From the IMG/VR virus record IMGVR_UViG_2925891887_000003: a stretch of 55,008 nt of DNA; one strand, given 5' to 3'. The DNA comes from a virus. Its lineage: Duplodnaviria; Heunggongvirae; Uroviricota; Caudoviricetes. Positions 2,349 through 42,917 of this stretch are shown here, piece by piece. A model generated the notes under the pieces. That model did no database searches. It saw only the letters and a program-made list of their open reading frames with translations, and was not told the origin of the DNA. Each line of letters opens with the position of its first letter. The stretch's first letter is position 1. A program made the translations under genes and the position numbers.

Positions 2349-2672
2349 TCAGTGTAAAACCGGCTTTTTGATGTGACGGACGCATAACTCATCCATTACG
2401 GCTATCCCGAGCTGGGAGAGTGCGGGACAGGACATTAGAGGGCCGGATTCCATCAGGTCTGAAAGCAGGGCGCAGGCGATTTCCATGCCTTTTGTTTGCC
2501 CGTGCTGTCGCAGATAAAATCCTTCAAGCTCACGGGCAATAGCGGTTTCAATTTCATCCAGAGTGAGCTGCAGGTGGCGGTTTTGCTGATAGCAGGCACT
2601 CAACCAGGCGCAGGCTACCGCGCGGCGATACAACGCTACCCGAAGTGAAAGGGAAAGAGTGCGTGATTTCAT
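2349..2672 (-). CDS. hypothetical protein, immediately upstream of alpha in the leftward operon
   Basis: 107-aa ORF, 14 nt upstream of the alpha start, same strand; ATGA overlap with the next ORF upstream. No recognisable motif. Confidence 0.4.
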
Positions 2673-2893
2673 TGCACCACCTCCATGTTCATCAGGTCAT
2701 CCTGGCAACGCTGTACCACGCCATCAAGCTGCTCTGTCATCAGATAAATCAGGGAAACCAGTTGCTCACATTGAGCACTGGCAGGTTTTTCGTAGCAATC
2801 CTGAAGAACAGCCATTCCGGTGACAAACTCCCCCACGTTACGAAGATGCTTCAGGCGGACAATATCGTCATAAGAGATTGCGGCGTGATTCAT
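2669..2893 (-). CDS. hypothetical small protein (position of P4 epsilon-like genes)
   Basis: ORF 2669..2932; internal ATG at 2893 ([11 protein letters not shown]...) preferred. Translationally coupled to the downstream ORF. Function inferred only from position. Confidence 0.3.
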
Positions 2894-3287
2894 CACATCA
2901 CCTCCCGGACAGGCAGGCGAGCAGCAAGGCAAAGCACATATTCATGGACCAGTGAAAGACGTGCATGAGACTCATCGCTGGCGACAATACGCAGCATACT
3001 GATACGTGGTTTACGTTCTGCACGACGAACGGCGGCAAAAACAAATATAAATTGAGGATGTGATGGGGTGAGGATCGTAGCCATAAGGGCAATCTCCAAT
3101 AAGTAGCGGTTATTGCCACCACCAGAGCTGCAAATCTCATGGGTGATGGCCCGGACGGGGTTTGCAGTACCGGCCTTATTGGAAACCGGCCAGCCCGAAG
3201 GCTGCCCCGCCCGGACCACCATTATCTGACAGGAGCCACGGTGTAAGCACCACAGCCCGAAAAATAGGTGTGCCTGAGCAACGACAT

Positions 3288-3309
3288 AAAAAAACACGCT
3301 CGACGCGTG
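3288..3309 (-). terminator. intrinsic terminator downstream of the AlpA/Vis-like gene
   Basis: On the minus strand: 5-bp GC stem (CACGC/GCGTG, loop GTCGA) followed by U7 (plus-strand A-run 3288-3294). Confidence 0.45.
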
Positions 3310-3437
3310 CTGTGTCGCCAATAAGTTACACGGGCTGCAAATCCCGGCTGCCGATTTTGCGGCAGCGGAAAAACTATAACTGGAAAGGTTGCCAGGACGC
3401 AAGCCACAAAAAAAGAGATGAGACTGCAAAGCCAGAT

Positions 3438-3698
3438 TCACGCATGGACTCCTTGCTCGCGGGCTGCAATTCGCGCCGCCATCCATGCACTGACCTCCGA
3501 CTGTACCCAGGCAACATTTTTTCCACCCAGGGAGATCTGCTGCGGGAAGGCATCACGGCTGATAAGGTCGTAGATGGTTGAACGGGATAGCCCGCAAAGG
3601 TGCATCACTTCAGGTAATCGTATGAAGCGCTCCTGCTGAGTCGGAACCGGGAGCACCGGAGCAGCTGGTGCCTGGGTGGAAACGGAAATAGTATGCAT
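3438..3698 (-). CDS. AlpA/Vis-family (MerR-like) phage transcriptional regulator
   Basis: 86 aa; [49 protein letters not shown] matches the AlpA-family pattern (RLP.V....G.SRST.Y......FP....LG...V.W..SEV..W). First gene of the leftward operon, divergent from the late operon. Confidence 0.75.
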
Positions 3699-4232
3699 CT
3701 CGCTACCTCTCTAATATGTTTTCAGTAGTCCGGAGAATTCCATCCGGATTCAGGTAGTTCCTTATTATGTTTATATAAGCGGCTCGCGCATGCTTTATTT
3801 AATTAGAGTGAAATATTGCTTTCTCAAAAAATAAAACAGCTAAAAACCGGATAAAACGGACAAAAACAAATCATTCCTTCATGGAATATAATAAGGAACT
3901 TAAAGAATAAAAAAGTCTATTACACCAGGCAGGATCGCAGCTCAAGCCTGAACCAGACCATATCATTCCGGGCGTTACATCATAAGGACAAAGACGGCAC
4001 CGGAATAATAAAAGGGCCAAAAAACATCCATAAAAAACAGTTCATCATATGTATTAATTAAATTAACGACTAAAAAATTAAATTACCCGCATCCTTCCGC
4101 ATTTATCCGGATGTGTTTAATGAGCATCAGACAGATTCATTTTTATGGATATTTTCTTGAAATGCAACCGAGTGTAGGGAGGTTAAGTTTTGAATTTTCA
4201 AACAGACATAAGACACATTTTATACTGTATAT

Positions 4233-4450
4233 TGAATAGTGTTGAATACGTGTGAATAGTGGTGATGAGTAAAAATCTAGTAATAAACTGAAATAAAGAT
4301 CGCGACTCATATGAAAAACAAATATAAGTTTAAATTTATCTCTGTGAACAGTCATGAACAGTAGATGACCACTTTGATTTAAACACTACACTCCTTAATT
4401 CCATGTATTTACTATTCTTTTATAAAAGTGAACAGTAGTGAATAGTATGT
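4233..4450. repeat. cluster of at least 7 TGAAYAGT-type short repeats (candidate iterons or operator sites)
   Basis: tgaatagtg, tgaatacgtg, tgaatagtgg (4233-4260); gtgaacagtc, atgaacagtag (4345-4365); gtgaacagtag, gtgaatagtat (4429-4450). Confidence 0.5.
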
Positions 4451-4511
4451 ATTAAAGGAAGGGTGAAGATCAGACATGACACCTTTCTCTGGCTAGCCAG
4501 AACAAGGTCAT

Positions 4512-4529
4512 TGTTCAGTCACTGGCACA
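4512..4529 (+). promoter_or_regulatory. TGT-N12-ACA dyad, candidate Ogr/Delta activator site of the late promoter
   Basis: tgt tcagtcactggc aca, ~75-90 bp upstream of the Sid-like start codon; P2/P4 late promoters carry a TGT-N12-ACA element near -55. Confidence 0.4.
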
Positions 4530-4601
4530 ATCCTCATCGGTAGTGCGCTTGTATGGGCACCGGCACAATTGACTCAACAACAAAACACTACCGGAGCAGC
4601 C

Positions 4602-5354
4602 ATGACAACTGTTAACCAGATCCCTGATGTAAACATTACACCTTCCCTCCCGCCGAAAATTCGCGAAGCGGTAGAAAAAGTTAAAGCAGCAAAAGCTGTC
4701 TGGCAGGAAGAACGGCGAAAACAAACTGAAGCCGCTGCAATGACTGAAACTATCCGTAAACGTCAGGAAGATACAAAAACGGAGACGCAGGCGCTTAATG
4801 ATGAATGGCGAAACCTGTTTCGTGAGAATCAGGGGAATATGACGCCACGAATGAAAAAACTGCGGGCAGAAATCGCCCTCGGACGCGAAACACTGGATGA
4901 GTTCGAAGATTTGCTGGCAGCTCAGGCCGCAGAAAATGAATTCCTGCCATGGAAAACTGCGGATGCTGCAAACCGCTACATCAGCGAACATAATCGCCTG
5001 ATTGAAACTCATGCAGTGTGGCTCTGGAATGAGTTTATGAAGGAACACGGCCAGAAACTTATTCAGATCCTTGGACTGCTGAAAATGACTCTGGGCCGAA
5101 GCGCATCTTCTGTTATCGGTGTAGTTCATACCGTAAACGACCCCGAAAGTGTGCTGAAGCAATTTATCAGCGAGCAACTCACCACTCCGGCACTGTCCTG
5201 TAACGTATCTTCAACGGATGATATTGCCCTGCCGGGGATCAGCATTTATGCGGACGATAAAGCCATACAGGATGCCAGACAATCACCCAGCCCTGCAGCG
5301 CGTTCCCGGATGCTTAAACAGCGTGACATGGTTAAAGGGGGCGAGAAGGAATGA
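4602..5354 (+). CDS. P4 late-operon protein, possibly Sid-like capsid size determination protein
   Basis: ORF 4569..5354 (TTG); ATG at 4602 with GGAG upstream preferred (250 aa). Predicted helical and charged; first gene of the operon ending in Psu-like and Ogr/Delta genes. Sid assignment is positional only. Confidence 0.4.
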   Translation: MTTVNQIPDVNITPSLPPKIREAVEKVKAAKAVWQEERRKQTEAAAMTETIRKRQEDTKTETQALNDEWRNLFRENQGNMTPRMKKLRAEIALGRETLDEFEDLLAAQAAENEFLPWKTADAANRYISEHNRLIETHAVWLWNEFMKEHGQKLIQILGLLKMTLGRSASSVIGVVHTVNDPESVLKQFISEQLTTPALSCNVSSTDDIALPGISIYADDKAIQDARQSPSPAARSRMLKQRDMVKGGEKE

Positions 5355-5905
5355 ATACCGGAACCATTACTAAGGAAGCTCTCAACGATTACCGCGCGGC
5401 GATAAAAAGCTGGCTGACACTACGTAATGTGCAAAGTACCAGCCAGCTTCGTCTGGCGGCTTTGCTGGATACTGAAGAAAAACCCGCAGCATATGCCAGC
5501 CAACTTGAGGATCTTCGTGAGCATCTTGTACTCCTCGAATGGCAGATTAACTGTGCCGCCCGGGATGGTCTTTATGCTCACCAGATTGTGCTGGAAAGCT
5601 GTGTTACAAGCGCAACTGAAAACTTCATGAGCGAGCATGGTGATGCACTCACTGACGCTCTGGCTCCTTTTCTTTGCGCACCATACGGGCTTGAGGCGGC
5701 AATGAAAATATTACGAACCGCTGTAGCCCGACAAACGGAAGTCCGTACTCCGGTAATTTCAGCAGCATATAAGAGCATTATCGACGAAACCGGATTAACG
5801 GTGGATGCATCAATGCGCGCTGATGCTTCAGCCAGTTTCACCCCGGCACAACATAAAGTTTTCCTGGCCCGCCTTAACCGACTTAATGAAAAAGGAGTGT
5901 GCTGA
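5351..5905 (+). CDS. Psu-like (polarity suppression / capsid decoration) protein
   Basis: 184 aa; ATGA overlap with the upstream gene. Segments ALTDALAPFL and SFTPAQHKVF resemble what I recall of P4 Psu. Moderate confidence. Confidence 0.55.
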   Translation: MNTGTITKEALNDYRAAIKSWLTLRNVQSTSQLRLAALLDTEEKPAAYASQLEDLREHLVLLEWQINCAARDGLYAHQIVLESCVTSATENFMSEHGDALTDALAPFLCAPYGLEAAMKILRTAVARQTEVRTPVISAAYKSIIDETGLTVDASMRADASASFTPAQHKVFLARLNRLNEKGVC

Positions 5906-5906
5906 T

Positions 5907-6179
5907 ATGGCCCTGAAGTGTCCTGAATGTGGCGCGGTCGCTCACGCTAGAACCAGCGCCTATGAAGCTCCGTCGGTTAAACGCTCATGGTATCAGTGCC
6001 AGAGTCTGGAATGTTCCTGCACATTTACCGCACTGGAAAGCGTGGATACGATAATTATGAAGCCTCGGCGCAATGAACAGGCATCAGACAAAGCAAAAAT
6101 GCCGGAAAAACAACAGCAAACTCTCAATCGCTATGGCTCCGCGTCAAAGCTGTCAAACCGTCAGCAAATTCCTGTCTGA
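5907..6179 (+). CDS. Ogr/Delta-family zinc-finger late transcription activator
   Basis: MALKCPECGAVAHARTSAYEAPSVKRSWYQCQSLECSCTFTALESV matches the Ogr/Delta C-x2-C...C-x4-C finger pattern; AAAGGAG RBS 9 nt upstream of the ATG. Confidence 0.85.
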   Translation: MALKCPECGAVAHARTSAYEAPSVKRSWYQCQSLECSCTFTALESVDTIIMKPRRNEQASDKAKMPEKQQQTLNRYGSASKLSNRQQIPV

Positions 6180-6270
6180 TTAGCAAAATACGCCCACGAA
6201 GTCTCGGTCCAGTACCGGGATTTTTTACGCTTTTTCCCTGGCTGGCCTGAGAGCGTATGAGTGCATATCT

Positions 6271-6309
6271 ATGGCGCATGAAAACGCATGAGTCTCATGC
6301 GCCATTTTT
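6271..6309 (+). terminator. intrinsic terminator of the late operon
   Basis: Perfect 11-bp inverted repeat atggcgcatga / tcatgcgccat followed by TTTTT. Confidence 0.6.
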
Positions 6310-6383
6310 GACGCGAAAGCCCTTGTGTGGTGGCTTCTGAGACGATTTAAGGGGTGCATGAAAACCAGTCTGTTAAGCGAAGC

Positions 6384-6407
6384 GGGCAGGCGGGCGGGGC
6401 TGCGCAC
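6384..6407. other. candidate cos (cohesive end) site of the P4-like element
   Basis: GC-rich gggcaggcgggcggggctgcgcac resembles my recollection of the P2/P4 cohesive end (GGCGAGGCGGGGAAAGCAC); sits where cos is expected, between the late operon and the cargo/int region. Not verified by alignment. Confidence 0.3.
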
Positions 6408-6451
6408 GCTGAGGGGAAGTATTGAGATCGGTGAGGGGAAATCTGATTCAT

Positions 6452-6473
6452 TAAAAAGGCCGCTTTCGCGGCC
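6452..6473 (-). terminator. intrinsic terminator ending the reverse-transcriptase operon
   Basis: Minus strand: GGCCGC-GAAA-GCGGCC hairpin followed by UUUUU, ~120 nt downstream of the RT-B stop. Confidence 0.6.
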
Positions 6474-6590
6474 TGTTTAGCTAAAAGGCAATAGTGTGTC
6501 TAAATCGGTCCATCCTCAAAACGTATCGCGAATATCTTTCGGATGAACATTCAAAAGCCGATCTTCCGGTATCTGCTTCAGGTCGAAACC

Positions 6591-8630
6591 TTAGGCATCG
6601 CAACCCTTTAACGAAATTAAAATACTACTATTCATATGCTGTTCGCAACTCTTTTTTATAAAGAACGTGCTCAAGATCAGCATCTCCAGACCAGTTAAAA
6701 AGATTACATTATTTTTTAAAGAATCAATTTCAGAATCAATTACTGCATTCGTAAATCTTTTTTGACCTGTATTTGCTTCGACATATGTTCTATAAATTAT
6801 TCTCTTATGCTTAACTGTAAGATATGGGCACGTCATCATATCAAGGAATAGCATAAATGTTTCAGTGTCTTTTTTTATATCGTTCCGACCACTTATCAAA
6901 CTCTGTATAGCAAGGACAATATCTTCTTTCATTTTTAGATAGAGAACATCATCGCCTATATAGTGTAACATGCTGCATATAGAAAAATATTCTAAATCGT
7001 AAAAACACTCATTCTCACTAATACCCAACAAATCCTTAAATTCATCTGGATTGAGTTTATACTGCTCCCCCAAACCTTTCATACATATAAGTAAGTTAGA
7101 TAACTCCACTGGCCTCTCATGAATATTACCCATGCTTTTCATGCACATAAGAAGCTCATCAAAAGTATTCTTTTTTATAACTTCACTAATGTCTGAAGCT
7201 TGCTTATTAGCAAATGAATTTATTTCCAAAATAACTTGGCTAATTATGTATGTCTGTCGGACTCGAAAATCCATAGCATAAATAAAAAAAATCACCTCAT
7301 TGAATATTGAGAAGAATTTATAAGTTATATCTTCTTTTCCTGACAGATCGAACATCCTCAACAGCCTAATTACTTTGAAAAACTTACTCTTAATCGCACT
7401 TATTAAGTATGAGCTAACAAGATCAAATGTGGTATTGTTTTTTCTAACCGCAATTTTGATTCGTTTTATAAATTTGTCCGCGTGTAGCTTTTTATTCCAT
7501 ACACCTTTCAATGGAAAAAGGTTATTCATATTTTCAGGCTGAATTTTGACGTCTGGATTTAAATTAACCATAGCTGTTAACTCATCCAACTTCTCAGTAT
7601 GGATTAACGATCCATATAAATCCTCAATGATTTCTGCAATATCATTTTTAGCCATCGTGGCTCCAGTCACGAATGGCCTCTCGATAAATTCCTTTTTAGA
7701 TTCATTCAAATAAAGCTTATATTTTTCGAGTTCATTTGCCAGTACAAATTCTATTAGCTTAAATGTTTCATCATCATCCGCAAATATAAAATAATCATCA
7801 ACGTAACGTCTTATAGCATAGCTCTTATCTTTAACTATGCCTGGCTCAAGATTCAAATGAGACTCAACATTCAAGTCAACGCGCTGTAATATAATCTCCG
7901 CAAATATCCTTGAAAATTCAGGCCCAATTATTATGCCATTTGTTTCACCATAATTGGCATCTTGAAAAAGCTTATCCAAACAACCTTCAAAGCTGTTATA
8001 AGTTCTATTAACCTTAGAGAATTCTTTAGATTTTACAGCCCATGAAACGCTGTGTGTATATATATGACTAAAACACTTAGCAATATCAAGCTTTAAAAGT
8101 TTCCTAAACTTCCTTTCCAATCTATGAAATTCATATGACTCATAAAACTTATAGATGAAAGGATATTTCTTATATGAAAAATGGGAAGATGAGGAAGTTT
8201 CTTGGGAATCAAAGCCATGATTATGAAATTGTACAAGACCATCTTTTAGATTTATTCTACTTTTTAAGAAGTCCTTTTCGTAATAATAGCTCCCTATTTT
8301 GCTAGGATAACGTAGCGAAAACGGACTTTTTGTACACATATGAACCATCAAATGTTCATACTTATCATAAAAATCACAGATTCTTAACTGCGTTGAAGGA
8401 TGTATAATGCCAAGGCTTCGAGAACTCGCCAGCCCCTTTTTTATTTTATAGGAGTAAGGGATGGTATAAGAATCCAGCTTAAGGCCTTCTGAAAATGTTC
8501 CGGGTAAAACTTTATTTTCAGAAATTAACTTATAGAAACCTTCGTTAGAAAAAAGGATAGGGACTTCATATGGTAAAATATCCGTGAGAAGTACTCTTTT
8601 ATAATCACTCTTCGATATTTTAATTTTCAT
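6591..8630 (-). CDS. reverse transcriptase, large (RT-B; UG/Abi-class defence-type RT with ~390-aa C-terminal extension)
   Basis: 679 aa, ~30% GC. RT motifs: LKLDIAKCFSHIYTHSV (motif A with Asp), NGIIIGPEFSRIFAEIILQRVD (motif B), RRYVDDYFIFADD (motif C, YVDD). GGTGA RBS; start 3 nt after the RT-A stop. Confidence 0.85.
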   Translation of the reverse strand: MKIKISKSDYKRVLLTDILPYEVPILFSNEGFYKLISENKVLPGTFSEGLKLDSYTIPYSYKIKKGLASSRSLGIIHPSTQLRICDFYDKYEHLMVHMCTKSPFSLRYPSKIGSYYYEKDFLKSRINLKDGLVQFHNHGFDSQETSSSSHFSYKKYPFIYKFYESYEFHRLERKFRKLLKLDIAKCFSHIYTHSVSWAVKSKEFSKVNRTYNSFEGCLDKLFQDANYGETNGIIIGPEFSRIFAEIILQRVDLNVESHLNLEPGIVKDKSYAIRRYVDDYFIFADDDETFKLIEFVLANELEKYKLYLNESKKEFIERPFVTGATMAKNDIAEIIEDLYGSLIHTEKLDELTAMVNLNPDVKIQPENMNNLFPLKGVWNKKLHADKFIKRIKIAVRKNNTTFDLVSSYLISAIKSKFFKVIRLLRMFDLSGKEDITYKFFSIFNEVIFFIYAMDFRVRQTYIISQVILEINSFANKQASDISEVIKKNTFDELLMCMKSMGNIHERPVELSNLLICMKGLGEQYKLNPDEFKDLLGISENECFYDLEYFSICSMLHYIGDDVLYLKMKEDIVLAIQSLISGRNDIKKDTETFMLFLDMMTCPYLTVKHKRIIYRTYVEANTGQKRFTNAVIDSEIDSLKNNVIFLTGLEMLILSTFFIKKSCEQHMNSSILISLKGCDA

Positions 8631-8633
8631 GAA

Positions 8634-9830
8634 TCACCAAACCTTATTTATTTTAATAATATCTTCCCGTTTAAAAGAAGACAGTAGCCGTTTTTCAAAA
8701 CCAGCCAAAAATGAGTATTTTTTAGGCGCAGTTAATAAGTTGTGACCTGCTGCTAAAATTTTTCTCCCCACCTCGCCCTTTGAAGAAAATAGCATCCTAT
8801 TCTTAAATATATCAAGTTCCTTGAGCTGTGTTTTATCAGTTATATGTTGATAATTGTAATAAATTCCACTATATAAAGCATCAGTTTTATTACTATTGGA
8901 GTTTACTAATATATTACCAGTTAAATACTTTATTCTTTTCTTCAAGAGTTCTGCATCAGAATTATTTGAGTAATCTTTTACCGCAAGTGCAATCCTTCTT
9001 TTTATTTTCTTTATTTTCTCCTCCGAAATTCTGATCACAACATGACGACGCTGATTTTTTAATCCATGGTGTATAATAAATGAATATCCCAAAAACTCAA
9101 TTTCAGAATGTTTAGTTGAAGTGTCCTCTATGGTATACTCACTGCACTTTCTTTCATTTAAATGTAATCCATTTGGTAAAATCCTTGAAAAATAATTTTT
9201 ATAATCTGGTATTTTATAGAATGAAAAAACTATGATATCATCCACATATCTTGAAGCATAAAAAACTTCAGGCAGCCTCGCCAACTCAGCATCAAATTCC
9301 TCCATAAATATTTCTGATAAAGTCGCACTTAATCCCATACCACGGGGAAGTCCGTTATTTGCAGAGAAAGCGTTATGTTTAAAAAGACCATTGATAAATT
9401 TTTTAGTATTATGAGAAATAATCGGGTTATTATTAATTCTTTGGAAAACGATATTTTTATCTATTGATTCATAAAAACTCTTAATATCCAGCCTGTAAAT
9501 ATAATAATTTACAGGCTCACTTAACACTGTATTTACTTTTTTTATGATGTCATGTCTGTTGTTTTGTTTAACACTATACACACGCTTAATGTTATCATTT
9601 ATTTTCCTGGCGACAAGTACATCCATAAAATCTTTAAATATATACACATTTTTGTTGTTAATTCTTGAATTTGAGATCGAACCAAATGAGTATGTTTCAA
9701 TTGAGCCATTAACTTTATCAGCTATATATTTTTTATATTCAGCTGAATTCCTACCAATTTTGTATCTTTTTGGATCGGTTTTTTTTAAAAGCTTAATTAA
9801 GTTCGAAACGGAAAATGACTGGTTTAACAT
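8634..9830 (-). CDS. reverse transcriptase, small (RT-A; UG/Abi-class defence-type RT)
   Basis: ORF track starts at GTG 9863 (overlapping int); ATG at 9830 with AAGGGG RBS preferred (398 aa). Motifs: YRLDIKSFYESID (A), GLPRGMGLSATLSEIFMEEFD (B), YASRYVDDIIVFS (C, YVDD). AT-rich. Confidence 0.85.
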   Translation of the reverse strand: MLNQSFSVSNLIKLLKKTDPKRYKIGRNSAEYKKYIADKVNGSIETYSFGSISNSRINNKNVYIFKDFMDVLVARKINDNIKRVYSVKQNNRHDIIKKVNTVLSEPVNYYIYRLDIKSFYESIDKNIVFQRINNNPIISHNTKKFINGLFKHNAFSANNGLPRGMGLSATLSEIFMEEFDAELARLPEVFYASRYVDDIIVFSFYKIPDYKNYFSRILPNGLHLNERKCSEYTIEDTSTKHSEIEFLGYSFIIHHGLKNQRRHVVIRISEEKIKKIKRRIALAVKDYSNNSDAELLKKRIKYLTGNILVNSNSNKTDALYSGIYYNYQHITDKTQLKELDIFKNRMLFSSKGEVGRKILAAGHNLLTAPKKYSFLAGFEKRLLSSFKREDIIKINKVW

Positions 9831-9831
9831 A

Positions 9832-11010
9832 TTATAACCCCTTTTTTTTGCGAAGATAATCACTGTACCATTGCATCATCTTCTGCCTTTCCATAAGGTA
9901 TATGGCATGATTATAAGTTCCTCTTATATTATTTCTATCAACATGAGCTAATTGGACTTCAATAAATGCTGATTGAAAACCTTCTTCATGCAAAATTGTT
10001 GATAACATATGTCTGAACCCGTGACCAGTGAGTCGGCCTTCGTAACCGATACGCTTGATAACTTGATTTATGCTAGCTTCGCTCATCGGTTTGTTCGGAT
10101 CGTTCCGTCCTGGAAAAACATAACGATAGTTCCCTGTCATTATCTTGAGTTCATGGAGTAAATCTAACGCTTGGGTCGACAATGGCACAAGATGCGGCCT
10201 GCGCATTTTCATCCTTTCAGCAGGAATTTCCCAAATAGCGTTATCCAGATCAAATTCTTGCCATAATGCCGCGCGTAATTCGATGGTTCTCACGCCCGTA
10301 ATCATCAGTAATTTCGTTGCTATCTGGACAAGCTTACTCCCGGTGTAACTCTCTAAGGCACGCAGAAATTCGGGTATCTCATCAGCTTTTAGGAACGGGA
10401 AATGATTGGATTGGTGCACTTCGAGAGCGCTGGAAAGATCTGCCGCAGGATTGTACTCCGCTCTACCCGTTGCAATTGCGTAGCGAAACACTTCAGAGCA
10501 ACGCTGACGCACTTTCCGCATTTTCTCCAACGCACCACGTTTCTCAATTTTACGCAGTACGTTCAGCAGCTCTAGCGGTTTAATCTCACTCACAGGCCTT
10601 GTTCCAACATAAGGAAAAATGTCGTTCTTAAACGCTTCCATGATGTCTGATGCATATCCTGCCGACCATTTAGCAGATTTAAGTTGATGCCACTCTCTGG
10701 CTATCTTTTCGAAGGCGTTCTCTGACTCTGCTTGCAGAGCCAGCTTTTGCTCTTTTCGAACATCACTAGGGTTCTTTCCTTCTGCCACAAGTTTTCGAGC
10801 TTCATCACGACGGGAACGAGCATCGGCAAGAGTGATCGTTGGGTAAACGCCAAGCGAGATCATCTTGGGTTTACCGGCATAGCGATAGCGGAACCGCCAG
10901 CTCTTGCTTCCATTAGGTTCTATAAGCAATGACAAGCCTTGCCCATCCCCAAGCGTATAGGGTTTATCTTCAGGCTTAGCGCGGCGAATCTGCATATCGT
11001 TTAAAGGCAT
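9832..11010 (-). CDS. int: P4-type tyrosine integrase
   Basis: 392 aa; N-terminus MPLNDMQIRRAKPEDKPYTLGDGQGLSL... typical of P4-family integrases; C-terminal HGFRHM...RGTYNHAIY catalytic region. Adjacent to the duplicated thrW 3' segment. Confidence 0.9.
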   Translation of the reverse strand: MPLNDMQIRRAKPEDKPYTLGDGQGLSLLIEPNGSKSWRFRYRYAGKPKMISLGVYPTITLADARSRRDEARKLVAEGKNPSDVRKEQKLALQAESENAFEKIAREWHQLKSAKWSAGYASDIMEAFKNDIFPYVGTRPVSEIKPLELLNVLRKIEKRGALEKMRKVRQRCSEVFRYAIATGRAEYNPAADLSSALEVHQSNHFPFLKADEIPEFLRALESYTGSKLVQIATKLLMITGVRTIELRAALWQEFDLDNAIWEIPAERMKMRRPHLVPLSTQALDLLHELKIMTGNYRYVFPGRNDPNKPMSEASINQVIKRIGYEGRLTGHGFRHMLSTILHEEGFQSAFIEVQLAHVDRNNIRGTYNHAIYLMERQKMMQWYSDYLRKKKGL

Positions 11011-11011
11011 G

Positions 11012-11061
11012 TGTATAGGAATCCATGACCGAACAGGAACATATACACAATCCTATACACA
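11012..11061. promoter_or_regulatory. 10-bp perfect inverted repeat just upstream of the int start codon (candidate operator or Int binding site)
   Basis: gtgtatagga ... tcctatacac separated by 30 bp. Confidence 0.3.
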
Positions 11062-11172
11062 TTCTTTATCGGATTCTACTGGATGGCTGCGGACGATGAT
11101 GGACTAAAAAACGGTAAAATCGTTATAAATCAGGGTATTTATGGATGAATACGGACATTTGGGGAAGTTGAG

Positions 11173-11219
11173 ATGGTGCCGATAATAGGAGTCGAACCTA
11201 CGACCTTCGCATTACGAAT
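11173..11219. repeat. att site: 47-bp duplicate of the thrW 3' end, junction between the two tandem elements
   Basis: atggtgccgataataggagtcgaacctacgaccttcgcattacgaat is identical to 53564-53610, which overlaps the 3' end of the intact tRNA. Confidence 0.85.
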
Positions 11220-11295
11220 TATAAGAATCCACTTCTAATTCAAAGCATTACCCCATCAACACTGCGCTCACACGTCCCACCACATCAAAACATGT

Positions 11296-11568: not shown

Positions 11569-12999
11569 TTAGCCAAAACTGATGTGATTTTTAGTTAGAT
11601 CTCTATATCTCTTATCGTTGTGTACTTTATGGAGGATCGTTTGGTTGGCGATCAAAAAATCTATAATTTCTTGAATTCTTTCGCTACGAGCATTGGCTCT
11701 TAACAAAGTCAAAACGCTTACCATATGTTGCTGGCAGTATTTGTTGTCTAAATTCACTCGCACTTCATTAGAGTGCATTGCTATAACTGTATTGATAATG
11801 TTTTGATCGCCAAGCATGCCAAAAAACTGATCATACAAAGGTCGTCCCGCCGGAGAAACACCAGTATTATATGGTATTCCTTTACCAACACGACAAATCA
11901 AAACTGTTTTTATAAGCTTATGAACCCTCTCTAAAGGTATGTCATTTTCAGTCTTTAAATACGAAAGAATCTTCCGCATATGAGGGGGTTCATTATAAAA
12001 GTTATCCCAAGCATACCTAGCCTCTAAGAGATCGTCGGCATGGCCGTCCAGTGATATAATTCTAGAGTCTAATGATTGATAACGATTACCATCACAAAAC
12101 GTAAAAAACTCAATACCTAAAGCATGTTTCTCGTTGTGAAGATTGTTCTTGTATCCGTCTAGCGTCACGCCGAGCTTGTATTTTACGTTATCACTGCTTT
12201 TATTCCAGATATGCGGAGCAAAAAGAGCGATATTTTTTCTGACAACATTTCCTGTTGAATCAGCTGTATATATGCCGAAAATACTATTGAGTAGATTGTC
12301 AGTATTCTGAAGCGACAGATCATTCAAAGGTCTTTCCATGCTATGAATTGTGGCTTCATCAAGAACATCAGTGGATCTTTTTAGATTCTCAAGGAATGAT
12401 TTTATTTGTATGGCAGACGCGGACGGTTTGTCGTTCAAAATATCTTGAACGCATGTTTGGAGCCAGCCAAGAAGTTCAAAAGCATTTATGGAGTATGAAT
12501 TTGGGTGCGAAGCACCAATGTCATTCCTCATAGTCAATATATGATTGAGCTTGGTGTAAACAACGTCAGATATTAATTCAAGTTTTCGGCAAGTATTAAT
12601 AAGGGTGTTGTCTTTTAAACCAGAAAGATCTTCTTCGGTAGAATAAAGCTCTCTACGTCCTCCTCCAACTGCAGCATCAAAGAACATATCGAGGCCATAA
12701 ACTACTACTTTTTCCCTTAAATTCAGTACAACTTCATTCCAAACATAATTTAACGATGCATCAAATAGTCCTATAGCCGCACCAGCAACGAACTTTGATA
12801 AATATCGAGCATCTCTTTTTACCTCAGCAGGTAAAGAATCTATGAATGTGGGGAGGTTTTTTTCAATAATTTGGCGCTCAGGGAGAGAGGCAATTATATT
12901 TTCGGTCGGCAAACCAAGATAGGATAAATATCCTTCAAATTTTGTTGTATCTGTGGAAAGTACCCCTGTTCCAGGTTTTGCAATCAATTCTGAACTCAT
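11569..12999 (-). CDS. hypothetical 476-aa protein, AT-rich moron at the prophage end
   Basis: Long AT-rich ORF with ATG start; no motif I recognise. Strong 10-bp GC hairpin (11509-11531) downstream. Confidence 0.7.
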   Translation of the reverse strand: MSSELIAKPGTGVLSTDTTKFEGYLSYLGLPTENIIASLPERQIIEKNLPTFIDSLPAEVKRDARYLSKFVAGAAIGLFDASLNYVWNEVVLNLREKVVVYGLDMFFDAAVGGGRRELYSTEEDLSGLKDNTLINTCRKLELISDVVYTKLNHILTMRNDIGASHPNSYSINAFELLGWLQTCVQDILNDKPSASAIQIKSFLENLKRSTDVLDEATIHSMERPLNDLSLQNTDNLLNSIFGIYTADSTGNVVRKNIALFAPHIWNKSSDNVKYKLGVTLDGYKNNLHNEKHALGIEFFTFCDGNRYQSLDSRIISLDGHADDLLEARYAWDNFYNEPPHMRKILSYLKTENDIPLERVHKLIKTVLICRVGKGIPYNTGVSPAGRPLYDQFFGMLGDQNIINTVIAMHSNEVRVNLDNKYCQQHMVSVLTLLRANARSERIQEIIDFLIANQTILHKVHNDKRYRDLTKNHISFG

Positions 13000-41585: not shown

Positions 41586-42917
41586 ATGTTAGATACACTA
41601 TCTTTCACTGAACGTGACGAGTTCCAACGAAGAAACATCGCTGAAAATATCATCAAGTTGCTAAAACCAGAGGCAGACATTTCACCACTGGTAATAGACG
41701 GCGCATGGGGAACAGGGAAAACAGAATTTAGTATCAAACTGAAAAATCTCATTATTGAGCAAGAAACTGAATCTAAAGTTGTTTATATTGATGCCTTTAA
41801 AGGGGATCATGCAGAATCTCCATTACTTCTCATAACCTCTGCAATTGCCAGCATTTTGCCTGAGGAAGAAAAACAACACTTCATTAAGCGATCTCTTCCT
41901 GCAATTCGCTTTGGTTTAAAAACGGTACTAAAAGCTGGTGCAGGTTGGTTTTTACGACAGGAGGCTAGTGAAGTTGCCGAAGAATTCCAAGATGCGATGA
42001 AGAAAGCAAGCAATGCAGCAATAGATGGGACTATTGAAAATTTGCTTGAAGACCATATGGACTCAGAGAAAAACATAAATTCACTTAAATCCTGCATCGA
42101 AAGCATATCAAAAAATCAAAAAATCGTAATTATAATTGATGAATTAGACCGATGTAAGCCGAGTTTTTCAACAAATGTCATTGAAACAATAAAACACATT
42201 TTTGACATCAATAATGTCTTTTTTATTTTAGTTACAAACACAGAACAATTAAAAGCATCTATAAATCATATTTATGGTTATAGCATTAACTCACAAAAGT
42301 ATCTTGACAAGTTTATAAAATATACCATCACGCTTCCAGATACATGTTTGATAAATGGTCACAACGTATGTAAAGCCTCTGTTATATATTGGGATTACCT
42401 TGTAGAAAAAACAAGATTATTGAATAAAATCAATAGATTATCAGGTTGCTTTATCCGTGATTTAATTCAACGAACCAACTTATCATTACGTGAAACACAA
42501 ACATTTTCACGCAATCTTAACATTTTTCAACTGTTAAACGACGATGAGAACAAAAGCAGTGATCCTTTAATAAATATGATCTTTGTCGTAGCTGCCTTCA
42601 TACATTGCTTTGGTAACAAGGAAAAACTAAAACAAGAAATTACCGCTGAATCTATATCTTATTTAGCAGACCTGCTTAACATAAAAGAAATACCTTATTC
42701 TTATGAGAGAAGATCGCAAATCCCTGAAATATCCATTGTATTCTTCGGAATAATTAAAGACAGTATTACTCTTAATGAGCGATTTGCCCCTAAAAGTGAT
42801 GAAGAACTTAAAAAATTCACAAATGTTTATACTGATTATGAACACATAAATTTTTGGAGTACTACACCCAGAGAGTTATTGATAAAATATATTAATCAAA
42901 TGTCATTCATCCAGTAA
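41586..42917 (+). CDS. KAP-family P-loop NTPase (moron)
   Basis: 443 aa, AT-rich, opposite strand to its neighbours; Walker A IDGAWGTGKTEF and Walker B IIIDELDRC, the pattern of KAP NTPases. Confidence 0.75.
   Translation: MLDTLSFTERDEFQRRNIAENIIKLLKPEADISPLVIDGAWGTGKTEFSIKLKNLIIEQETESKVVYIDAFKGDHAESPLLLITSAIASILPEEEKQHFIKRSLPAIRFGLKTVLKAGAGWFLRQEASEVAEEFQDAMKKASNAAIDGTIENLLEDHMDSEKNINSLKSCIESISKNQKIVIIIDELDRCKPSFSTNVIETIKHIFDINNVFFILVTNTEQLKASINHIYGYSINSQKYLDKFIKYTITLPDTCLINGHNVCKASVIYWDYLVEKTRLLNKINRLSGCFIRDLIQRTNLSLRETQTFSRNLNIFQLLNDDENKSSDPLINMIFVVAAFIHCFGNKEKLKQEITAESISYLADLLNIKEIPYSYERRSQIPEISIVFFGIIKDSITLNERFAPKSDEELKKFTNVYTDYEHINFWSTTPRELLIKYINQMSFIQ

Follow-up and report, generated by a model that had tools for sequence, protein, structure and literature searches.

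A DRT3 locus with a frameshifted drt3b gene in the cargo region of a P4-like satellite of Escherichia coli

Genes and signals of the two-gene locus

The window, i.e., the whole stretch of 55,008 nucleotides that was analysed, is 100% identical to the sequence of E. coli CFSAN064035. [quoted passage not shown] The preliminary description of this DNA had reported a tandem, AT-rich RT pair with a YVDD motif in both products, and these features were confirmed. The stop codon of drt3a (TGA) is separated from the ATG of drt3b by the three nucleotides TTC, and the GC content of the pair is 0.312 vs. 0.49 across the rest of the satellite. The YVDD motif occupies residues 195–198 of Drt3a (window positions 9248–9237) and residues 276–279 of Drt3b (7805–7794). 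The reading frame of drt3a reaches 9863 with a GTG start; the ATG at 9830 is backed by the profile and by RefSeq.

Table 1. Features of the DRT3 locus and of the adjoining satellite regions (window coordinates)
Feature	Position	Strand	Basis or remark
psu	5351..5905	plus	Pfam Psu PF07455, 9.5e-34; RefSeq name
ogr/delta	5907..6179	plus	Pfam Ogr_Delta PF04606, 2.6e-15; RefSeq name
Conserved satellite backbone	6200..6418		~97% identity in the matches listed; shared with most other matching genomes (851 records)
DRT3 ncRNA, 161 nt	6452..6612	minus	161/161 nt match to the RIP-seq-defined EcoDRT3 ncRNA (PMC13174585 Table S3)
Intrinsic-terminator-like hairpin (7 pairs, 6 GC) and T-run, 3' end of ncRNA and operon	6457..6474	minus	
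Template motif 5'-ACACAC-3', ncRNA nt 114-119	6494..6499	minus	Unpaired in the consensus fold
drt3b (UG8, class 1 RT), frameshifted 679-aa ORF	6591..8630	minus	NF041748, PDB 26CZ
Displaced Drt3b tail remnant (NWSGDADLEHVLYKKELRTAYE, then stop), other frame, without start codon	6628..6696	minus	Three-frame translation
T5 run (T6 in all other copies), frameshift site, codons 644-645	6697..6701	minus	Sequence comparison
drt3a (UG3, class 2 RT), 398 aa	8634..9830	minus	NCBIfam, PADLOC, RefSeq
P4-type tyrosine integrase (int)	9832..11010	minus	Pfam Arm-DNA-bind_3, Phage_int_M, Phage_integrase
Candidate promoter TAGAAA-16-TATAAT, 10/12	9910..9937	minus	~80 nt 5' of the drt3a ATG, in the 3' end of int
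47-nt copy of the tRNA-Thr 3' part, att repeat, right satellite end	11173..11219	minus	Identical to 53564-53610

The ncRNA starts 15 nt past the canonical drt3b stop, and the frameshifted drt3b frame overlaps its first 22 nt. No Rfam family covers this RNA at gathering thresholds in the whole window. The single-sequence fold of the region is marginally better than that of shuffled sequences (z = −2.0); therefore, the assignment is based on comparative base pairs and on the perfect match to the published RNA. In the consensus fold, 11 of the 44 pairs are compensatory with both sides changed, these changes coming from two lineages only. Genome contigs were scanned with a Drt3b alignment, which gave at least eight loci as the basis for checking the ACACAC motif and the terminal tyrosine; the IMG/VR locus L008, full of stop codons, was excluded from the comparison. 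Among the matches listed, ACACAC was found at most 260 nt downstream of drt3b in all 11 loci, which belong to several phyla. Promoter-like sites are as numerous in the region as expected from shuffled sequences, and the one given in Table 1 is a weak candidate only.

The P4-like satellite and its cargo

The DRT3 genes form the cargo cassette (~6419–9857) of a P4-like satellite whose integration site is tRNA-Thr (thrW). Their placement between the late genes and the integrase gene, as given earlier, is correct, with psu and delta lying on one side and int on the other; 1 nt separates the int stop TAA from the drt3a ATG. The variable cassette begins at ~6419, and int homology resumes at ~9858–9905. 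The satellite core genes found were psu, delta, a sid-like gene, the alpha primase-helicase, the integrase and the CI RNA immunity element. The P4-alpha-type protein was recognised by its Pfam primase-helicase domains, and the Rfam search detected the C4 antisense RNA (86 bits) together with its a1b1 target. Over the whole window, the Rfam matches were limited to tRNA-Thr and, in the P4 immunity region, the C4/isrK RNAs. A P2/P4 cos 19-mer had no match with three or fewer mismatches, and the sid-psu-delta-cos region had no blastn match in the phage collection. At the position of the att repeat that forms the right end of the satellite, other genomes carry the full tRNA-Thr; the left end is outside the window.

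The P4 defence hotspot abuts cos (Rousset et al. 2022, PMC9122126), cos being expected from the literature in the conserved backbone stretch (6200–6418), and UG3+UG8 (DRT type 3) is listed among the systems of the P4 variable region (Mestre et al. 2022, PMC9226505). The cassette described here likewise lies between psu/delta and int and shows no difference in kind from this hotspot. It does differ in that the satellite no longer adjoins the intact tRNA-Thr, from which it is separated by an island and a prophage.

Identity of the system and mechanism of its intact form

Both proteins contain an RT catalytic core (Pfam RVT_1, 54.7 and 34.2 bits; gathering score 29.6), and no other Pfam domain was found in either, which bears out the reported absence of a maturase or endonuclease domain. 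The searches of NCBIfam and PADLOC profiles placed the two proteins in the Drt3a and Drt3b families. Drt3a matches the NCBIfam equivalog NF041747 with 390.4 bits (cutoff 200) over profile positions 1–412 of 412, and the PADLOC Drt3a profile with 1.7e-154 over essentially its full length. Its RefSeq entry is WP_000934358.1, 'antiviral reverse transcriptase Drt3a'. Drt3b scores 657.9 bits against the equivalog NF041748 (cutoff 350), the match stopping at residue 646, and 5.2e-218 against essentially the full length of the PADLOC Drt3b profile. RefSeq gives the names drt3a and drt3b to the genes of CFSAN064035, and it annotates drt3a/drt3b at the matching place in 13 complete E. coli genomes. Together with the ncRNA, the NCBIfam and PADLOC assignments fully support the earlier proposal of a two-RT anti-phage system of the DRT3 type in a P4 hotspot.

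The closest characterised system is EcoDRT3 from the E. coli strain ECOR12 (PDB 26CZ; PMC13174585; Gao et al. 2020), which has the same gene order and shares with the recorded locus 397 of the 398 residues of Drt3a (tested EcoDRT3a WP_087902017.1; sole difference I330L) and the whole 161-nt ncRNA. The recorded Drt3b is identical to PDB 26cz_A at 642 of the 644 positions over residues 1–644 (N370D, I410L) and divergent afterwards. These 644 residues are canonical, comprising the RT-like and alpha-repeat domains and the first part of the C-terminal tail. All of the named catalytic and gate residues of EcoDRT3 (E22, R71, D182, F187, R241 and Y276-V-D-D279) are kept; the nucleotide-gating E22, R71 and R241 stand at the published positions and are invariant in a four-sequence alignment (A1). 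The DRT3 complex of Drt3a and Drt3b in PDB 9Z6Y/9Z6Z probably corresponds to the 6:6:6 complex that Deng et al. described in 2026 (summarised in the review PMC13314766). Its proteins belong to the same two families and match from end to end (Drt3b E = 1.8e-87, Drt3a E = 2.1e-43), although in sequence the complex is a distant homologue. The next-best matches of Drt3b were Drt6 (3e-46), Drt4 (1e-39) and AbiK (3e-24), along with PDB 7R08 and 7Z0Z, all far below the Drt3b scores. AbiK, DRT4/UG15 and Drt6 resemble Drt3b in being hexameric, protein-primed RTs with an alpha-repeat domain. Unlike DRT3, they are single-gene systems producing untemplated DNA and have neither a class 2 RT partner nor an ncRNA.

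The preliminary description left a choice between canonical DRT3 and a new variant, pointing to a C-terminal domain of ~390 aa with unknown function in the large RT. The first of these readings stands and the second is not supported. The region in question is the known alpha-repeat domain (323–621) and the C-terminal tail, resolved by cryo-EM in a protein ~99.7% identical to the recorded one (PDB 26CZ; PMC13174585), and it is covered by the Drt3b profiles. A variant with a novel C-terminal domain could draw on the last 35 residues of the recorded frame, which have no profile match. These residues, however, are fully accounted for by a one-nucleotide deletion, the normal tail being readable in the adjacent frame, and residues 323–644 correspond to the known domain and the start of the tail by both the profiles and PDB 26CZ, making such a variant extremely improbable. 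The chance is equally small that the genes are those of a non-defence retroelement such as a retron or a group II intron. Weak matches do exist, with 73.9 and 30.2 bits for the group II RT/maturase and 43.1 bits for the best retron RT (St85), but the cutoffs of 300 (group II, TIGR04416) and 235 (retron) are far above them, in contrast to the 390 and 658 bits obtained with the Drt3a and Drt3b profiles. Rfam found no group II intron RNA and no retron msr/msd RNA in the window. Retron and group II intron identities were thus rejected by the sub-cutoff RT scores, the lack of a matching RNA and the lack of a maturase or endonuclease domain. Judged by sequence comparison, the locus is a canonical DRT3 (UG3 + UG8 + ncRNA), the same by descent as the characterised EcoDRT3. 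The locus is not new: the system, its ncRNA, structure, DNA product and trigger as well as its residence in the P4 hotspot have all been published.

EcoDRT3 is the model system of two mechanistic studies of 2026 (Wang et al., PMC13174585; Deng et al., summarised in PMC13314766). Drt3a, bound to the downstream ncRNA, produces poly-(dTdG) by repeated copying of the ACACAC loop, the template role of which was shown experimentally, and Drt3b, a hexamer, primes from its own Tyr666 (PMC13174585). Synthesis of poly-(dTdG)/(dCdA) and phage protection were both shown for the ECOR12 system (PMC13174585). Under normal conditions, RecBCD degrades the dsDNA product; phage-encoded RecBCD inhibitors such as lambda Gam cause the dsDNA to accumulate, leading to abortive infection, and intact DRT3 is lethal without RecBCD (PMC13174585). 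The Y666F substitution in Drt3b abolishes both poly-(dCdA) and defence against lambda, and C-terminal tags on Drt3b abolish defence (PMC13174585). For the complex of Deng et al. 2026, the reported mechanism is the same as that of EcoDRT3: ACACAC is the template of the GT strand, and the AC strand is directed by protein (summarised in PMC13314766).

The frameshift in drt3b and its origin

The recorded copy differs from EcoDRT3 by a one-nucleotide deletion in the T6 run, which puts drt3b out of frame at codon 645 and yields a protein of 679 aa, 12 aa longer than the normal 667 aa. The last 23 residues (645–667), i.e., the invariant tail ...FNWSGDADLEHVLYKKELRTAYE with the priming Tyr666, are absent and are replaced by 35 unrelated out-of-frame residues (645–679) without any Tyr. 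Within the displaced remnant of the tail, the Tyr666 codon lies at 6636–6634 and the canonical stop at 6630–6628. The deletion is the sole difference from AR_0019 over window positions 6200–9900 (3.7 kb) and from the metagenomic IMG/VR contig L005 over 2631–11230 (8.6 kb). The T6 run is kept in homologues as distant as 49% aa identity. The tail end ...LRTAYE is identical in the F404 homologue (82% nt identity) and reads ...LRTPYE in homologues at ~49% aa identity. In nine of the ten comparison loci among the matches listed, Tyr occupies the final or penultimate position; the end of L014 was not recovered. The T-run as a site of phase variation or programmed frameshifting was considered and rejected as unsupported, since it measures just 5–6 nt and, of several hundred contigs, a single one has the shifted form.

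The missing tail is a lesion in a bona fide DRT3 member, 99.97% identical to intact copies at the nucleotide level, and not a sign of a different family; it may also be an assembly error. In its recorded form, the copy is predicted to be non-functional and to provide no defence, since Tyr666 is lost and the published Y666F and C-terminal-tag mutants lose defence. Without Tyr666, no self-primed poly-(dCdA) would be formed, and without poly-(dCdA) neither a dsDNA product nor defence would be expected. Drt3a and the ncRNA of this copy may still make some poly-(dTdG). As a whole, the locus is very probably explained as DRT3/EcoDRT3 carried as cargo of a P4-like satellite at tRNA-Thr, with drt3b frameshifted and defence predicted to be lost in the recorded form. 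No observation speaks against the DRT3 identity.

The deletion may be a real, recent mutation or an assembly error in the homopolymer. There is an even chance that the assembly or consensus is wrong within the homopolymer and that the strain carries an intact, active EcoDRT3. The allele is a singleton, found on one contig vs. 748 with the intact form; it lies in a T6 run and is accompanied by no other change relative to L005 or AR_0019. Moreover, the sister assembly CRE10 differs within the satellite (to the end of int) by 1-nt deletions only and by zero substitutions, which is the signature of long-read errors. However, across 46 kb of the assembly the 'frameshifted' flag is carried by just one other CDS, so that the sequence is not generally error-ridden, and genuine loss-of-function alleles exist, namely a 597-aa frameshift form of Drt3b on 19 contigs from several sources and an IS1 insertion at the drt3b/ncRNA junction in MS 145-7. 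The intact system is also costly, since it is lethal without RecBCD.

A real and recent inactivation, as one case of the recurrent decay of a costly system, comes close to an even chance as well. Its evidence consists of independent lesions in near-identical loci: besides the frameshift at codon 645, a 1-nt deletion in CRE10 results in a 584-aa Drt3b, IS1 in MS 145-7 has inserted precisely at the drt3b stop and is accompanied by a 9-bp target duplication, and the 597-aa allele makes the fourth case. The system makes its DNA constitutively, and this is toxic to recBCD mutants (PMC13174585; PMC13314766). Nevertheless, two of the four lesions are singletons and could be sequencing errors, and intact copies far outnumber the damaged ones (the two most frequent intact forms occur on 748 and 263 contigs). 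A broader proposal, in which the deletion is genuine and EcoDRT3 has been knocked out in nature several times independently, is rather unlikely. If true, it would point to recurrent selection against a constitutive maker of repetitive, possibly Z-DNA-prone dsDNA. On this reading, the tail-less Drt3b could still stimulate Drt3a, in which case the strain would contain poly-(dTdG) single strands only.

Cloning from CFSAN064035, or copying WP_250113765.1 (679 aa) as 'Drt3b', would give the version without the priming tyrosine; WP_000694210.1 or WP_062891751.1 (667 aa) is the reference for intact Drt3b. Automatic annotation labels the frameshifted frame as a normal Drt3b, and counts of 'DRT3-positive' genomes therefore include probably inactive copies.

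Identity of the gene pair

The two adjacent reverse transcriptase genes are separated by 3 nt, with the junction reading ...TGG TGA TTC ATG..., and both encode YVDD (residue 195 of Drt3a, residue 276 of Drt3b), as the preliminary description had it. The AT-richness noted there is also borne out (GC 31% vs 49% in the remaining satellite). Drt3a profiles begin matching at residue 12 of the listed ORF, and the RefSeq start, an ATG at 9830, corresponds to this profile start and gives a protein of 398 aa. RVT_1 was the only Pfam domain found in either protein. The NCBIfam equivalog models gave 390 bits for Drt3a (cutoff 200, profile positions 1-412 of 412) and 658 bits for Drt3b (cutoff 350), and PADLOC recovered both (1.7e-154 and 5.2e-218, respectively). 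The runner-up families UG17, Drt6, Drt4 and AbiK scored far behind. A group II intron or retron identity was rejected, the profile search scoring those models far under their cutoffs. The proposed check against RT-family and defense profiles thus returned the DRT3 families, and this assignment is in no doubt.

Over at least 18.9 kb, the E. coli CFSAN064035 chromosome (NZ_CP031134.1), where PGAP already names drt3a and drt3b, matches the window with 100% identity. The locus is found in 12 complete E. coli genomes at no less than 99.8% identity and in one more at 82%. The tested system, that of E. coli ECOR12, is given by Wang, Yoneyama et al. 2026 (PMC13174585, Table S3). Its Drt3a differs from that of the window by one residue, I330L; its RIP-seq-defined 161-nt ncRNA matches window 6452-6612 (minus strand) at 161 of 161 positions. 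Residues 1-644 of Drt3b are the same as in the cryo-EM structure of SUMO-EcoDRT3b (PDB 26CZ) except for N370D and I410L. Given these identities, the locus is the model EcoDRT3 itself rather than a relative. The system is already known: the option of a new variant was wrong, and the C-terminal domain of about 390 aa, first taken to be of unknown function, is the described alpha-repeat domain (residues 323-621) plus C-terminal tail (622-667) of EcoDRT3b (PMC13174585). All that the record adds is a deposited copy lacking the priming tyrosine.

Loss of the Drt3b tail in the recorded copy and its predicted effect

Direct alignment over 6200-9900 with strain AR_0019 gave a single difference, T5 for T6. 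The reading frame is lost from codon 645 onward, and the tail FNWSGDADLEHVLYKKELRTAYE, with its stop codon, gives way to 35 unrelated residues. Profile matches to Drt3b end at residue 646-648 of 679, and the 26CZ alignment diverges at NNVIFLT vs NNVIFFN. The tail is still legible in another frame, which has no start codon, and the lengthened ORF enters the ncRNA by 22 nt. The intact tail is the same in the homologue F404 (82% nucleotide identity) and nearly the same in homologues of about 49% amino acid identity. Tyr666 is lost from the recorded protein, all other named mechanism residues being present. Tyrosine is the last or second-last residue in 9 of 10 comparison loci (the end of L014 was not recovered).

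The intact system is described in PMC13174585 and by Deng et al. 2026, the latter as far as reviewed in PMC13314766. In these accounts, Drt3a and the ncRNA make poly-(dTdG) by copying ACACAC, while Drt3b, a hexamer, primes from Tyr666 and adds dC and dA alternately, untemplated, via E22, R241 and R71. The two products anneal into dsDNA, which RecBCD holds at a low level; lambda Gam or RecBCD loss allows it to accumulate, causing growth arrest, and GreA is required. The Y666F mutation abolishes poly-(dCdA) synthesis and lambda defense, and C-terminal tags on Drt3b abolish defense (PMC13174585). On this basis the recorded copy, which lacks Tyr666, should be inactive: without priming, the (dCdA) strand, dsDNA and defense would all be absent. 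Some poly-(dTdG) might persist if the altered Drt3b folds, since stimulation of Drt3a in vitro survives the catalytic inactivation of Drt3b (PMC13174585).

Origin of the T5 allele and other damaged copies

Several observations on the T5 allele fit an assembly error. Exactly one contig on record, the CFSAN064035 chromosome, encodes the 679-aa protein, vs 748 contigs for the intact 667-aa form, and the metagenomic IMG/VR contig L005 is the same as window 2631-11230 except for the T-run base. In the sister assembly, E. coli CRE10, the satellite up to the int end differs by 1-nt deletions only, with zero substitutions; one truncates drt3b to 584 aa and a second lies at window-equivalent 4418, a pattern that suggests long-read errors. 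An Avs2 gene follows the satellite int in CRE10.

A real mutation fits as well, CFSAN064035 having just one other CDS labeled as frameshifted in 46 kb. Genuine lesions of DRT3 also exist. A 597-aa Drt3b allele (P0005), which NCBI and Logan assemblies record on 19 contigs, matches the ECOR12 type to ...NDIKK and is out of frame beyond; it likewise has no Tyr666 and looks like a loss-of-function allele in circulation. In E. coli MS 145-7, the drt3b stop codon is the exact insertion point of an IS1 (768 bp plus a 9-bp target duplication, CTACTATTC), which leaves the protein intact and separates the gene from the ncRNA. This natural lesion cannot be a sequencing error.

The ncRNA, the satellite and the tRNA-Thr region

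A downstream CACACA-like RNA motif was described for UG3+UG8 by Mestre et al. 2022. The ACACAC template was checked independently in drt3b loci from IMG/VR and reference genomes (30-85% amino acid identity, among the matches listed), including Kosakonia, Pantoea, Bacteroidales, Sedimenticola and Magnetobacteria. ACACAC lies within 260 nt downstream of drt3b in 11 of 11 loci, with a chance expectation of roughly 6% per locus. It is unpaired in the consensus fold of five enterobacterial RNAs, in which 11 of 44 pairs are kept despite changes on both sides. These changes back the structure in a supportive, not rigorous way, since they stem from only two lineages.

Features of the window and of related damaged loci
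Feature	Position	Strand	Remark
Alpha-type primase-helicase	1-2334	minus	
CI/C4 RNA immunity region	3139-3379		
Psu-like gene	4602-5354	plus	upstream of psu, sid position; Pfam Psu 32.3 bits, residues 113-239, weak but above threshold
Terminator-like hairpin	6474-6457	minus	downstream of ACACAC
ACACAC template	6499-6494	minus	ncRNA nt 114-119
drt3b ORF	6591-8630	minus	679 aa
IS1 in MS 145-7 (L018)	L018 1935-2711		equivalent to window 6625-6633
T5 run	6697-6701	minus	T6 in AR_0019; direct alignment
1-nt deletion in CRE10 (L017)	equivalent to 6889		GACCAC to GACAC
drt3a ORF	8634-9863	minus	409 aa from GTG
tRNA-Thr 3' part, 47 nt	11173-11219		satellite right end; also 53564-53610
476-aa ORF	11569-12999	minus	GC about 0.38; directly outside satellite att repeat; RefSeq hypothetical protein
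KAP-family NTPase gene	41586-42917	plus	on the strand opposite to holin and Q antiterminator
Other frameshifted CDS (RefSeq)	50565-50884	plus	hypothetical prophage gene; only other in 46 kb inspected
Prophage integrase	52432-53550	plus	adjoins true tRNA-Thr and proA
tRNA-Thr (real)	53565-53640		

The remaining satellite parts are the Psu-like gene, which may be a diverged psu paralogue, psu, ogr/delta, the cassette and int. Between the HTH regulator and the Psu-like gene, about 900 bp (3699-4601) have no annotated gene and include a strongly AT-rich stretch (GC 0.31 at 4001-4500). The backbone common to most other matching E. coli genomes stops at 6418, and alignment to other P4-type int genes starts at about 9858-9905; from these limits the cassette is about 3.4 kb, wholly occupied by the ncRNA, drt3b and drt3a. 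The psu-int hotspot was defined by Rousset et al. 2022, and UG3+UG8 was listed there by Mestre et al. 2022; placing DRT3 in the P4 hotspot was right. The stop codon of int and the drt3a ATG are 1 nt apart. The top promoter-like site (9937-9910) is inside int, in a scan no better than shuffles. The 90%-identity cluster containing Drt3a has a P4-type integrase as representative and mostly integrase members. With int and drt3a spaced by 1 nt, fused or mis-called ORFs may have led to this as a clustering artefact.

Three elements stand in tandem at tRNA-Thr (thrW): the P4-like satellite, ending at the 47-nt partial tRNA copy, and then, within 11.2-53.6 kb, a small island and a prophage, complete and about 35 kb long; in other genomes tRNA-Thr is directly beside the satellite int. 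The island contains a DUF2254 protein, a BCCT transporter and the 476-aa ORF, for which no Pfam match was found. In the prophage, the KAP-family NTPase gene occupies the interval between holin and Q antiterminator, a typical site of a moron or defense gene.
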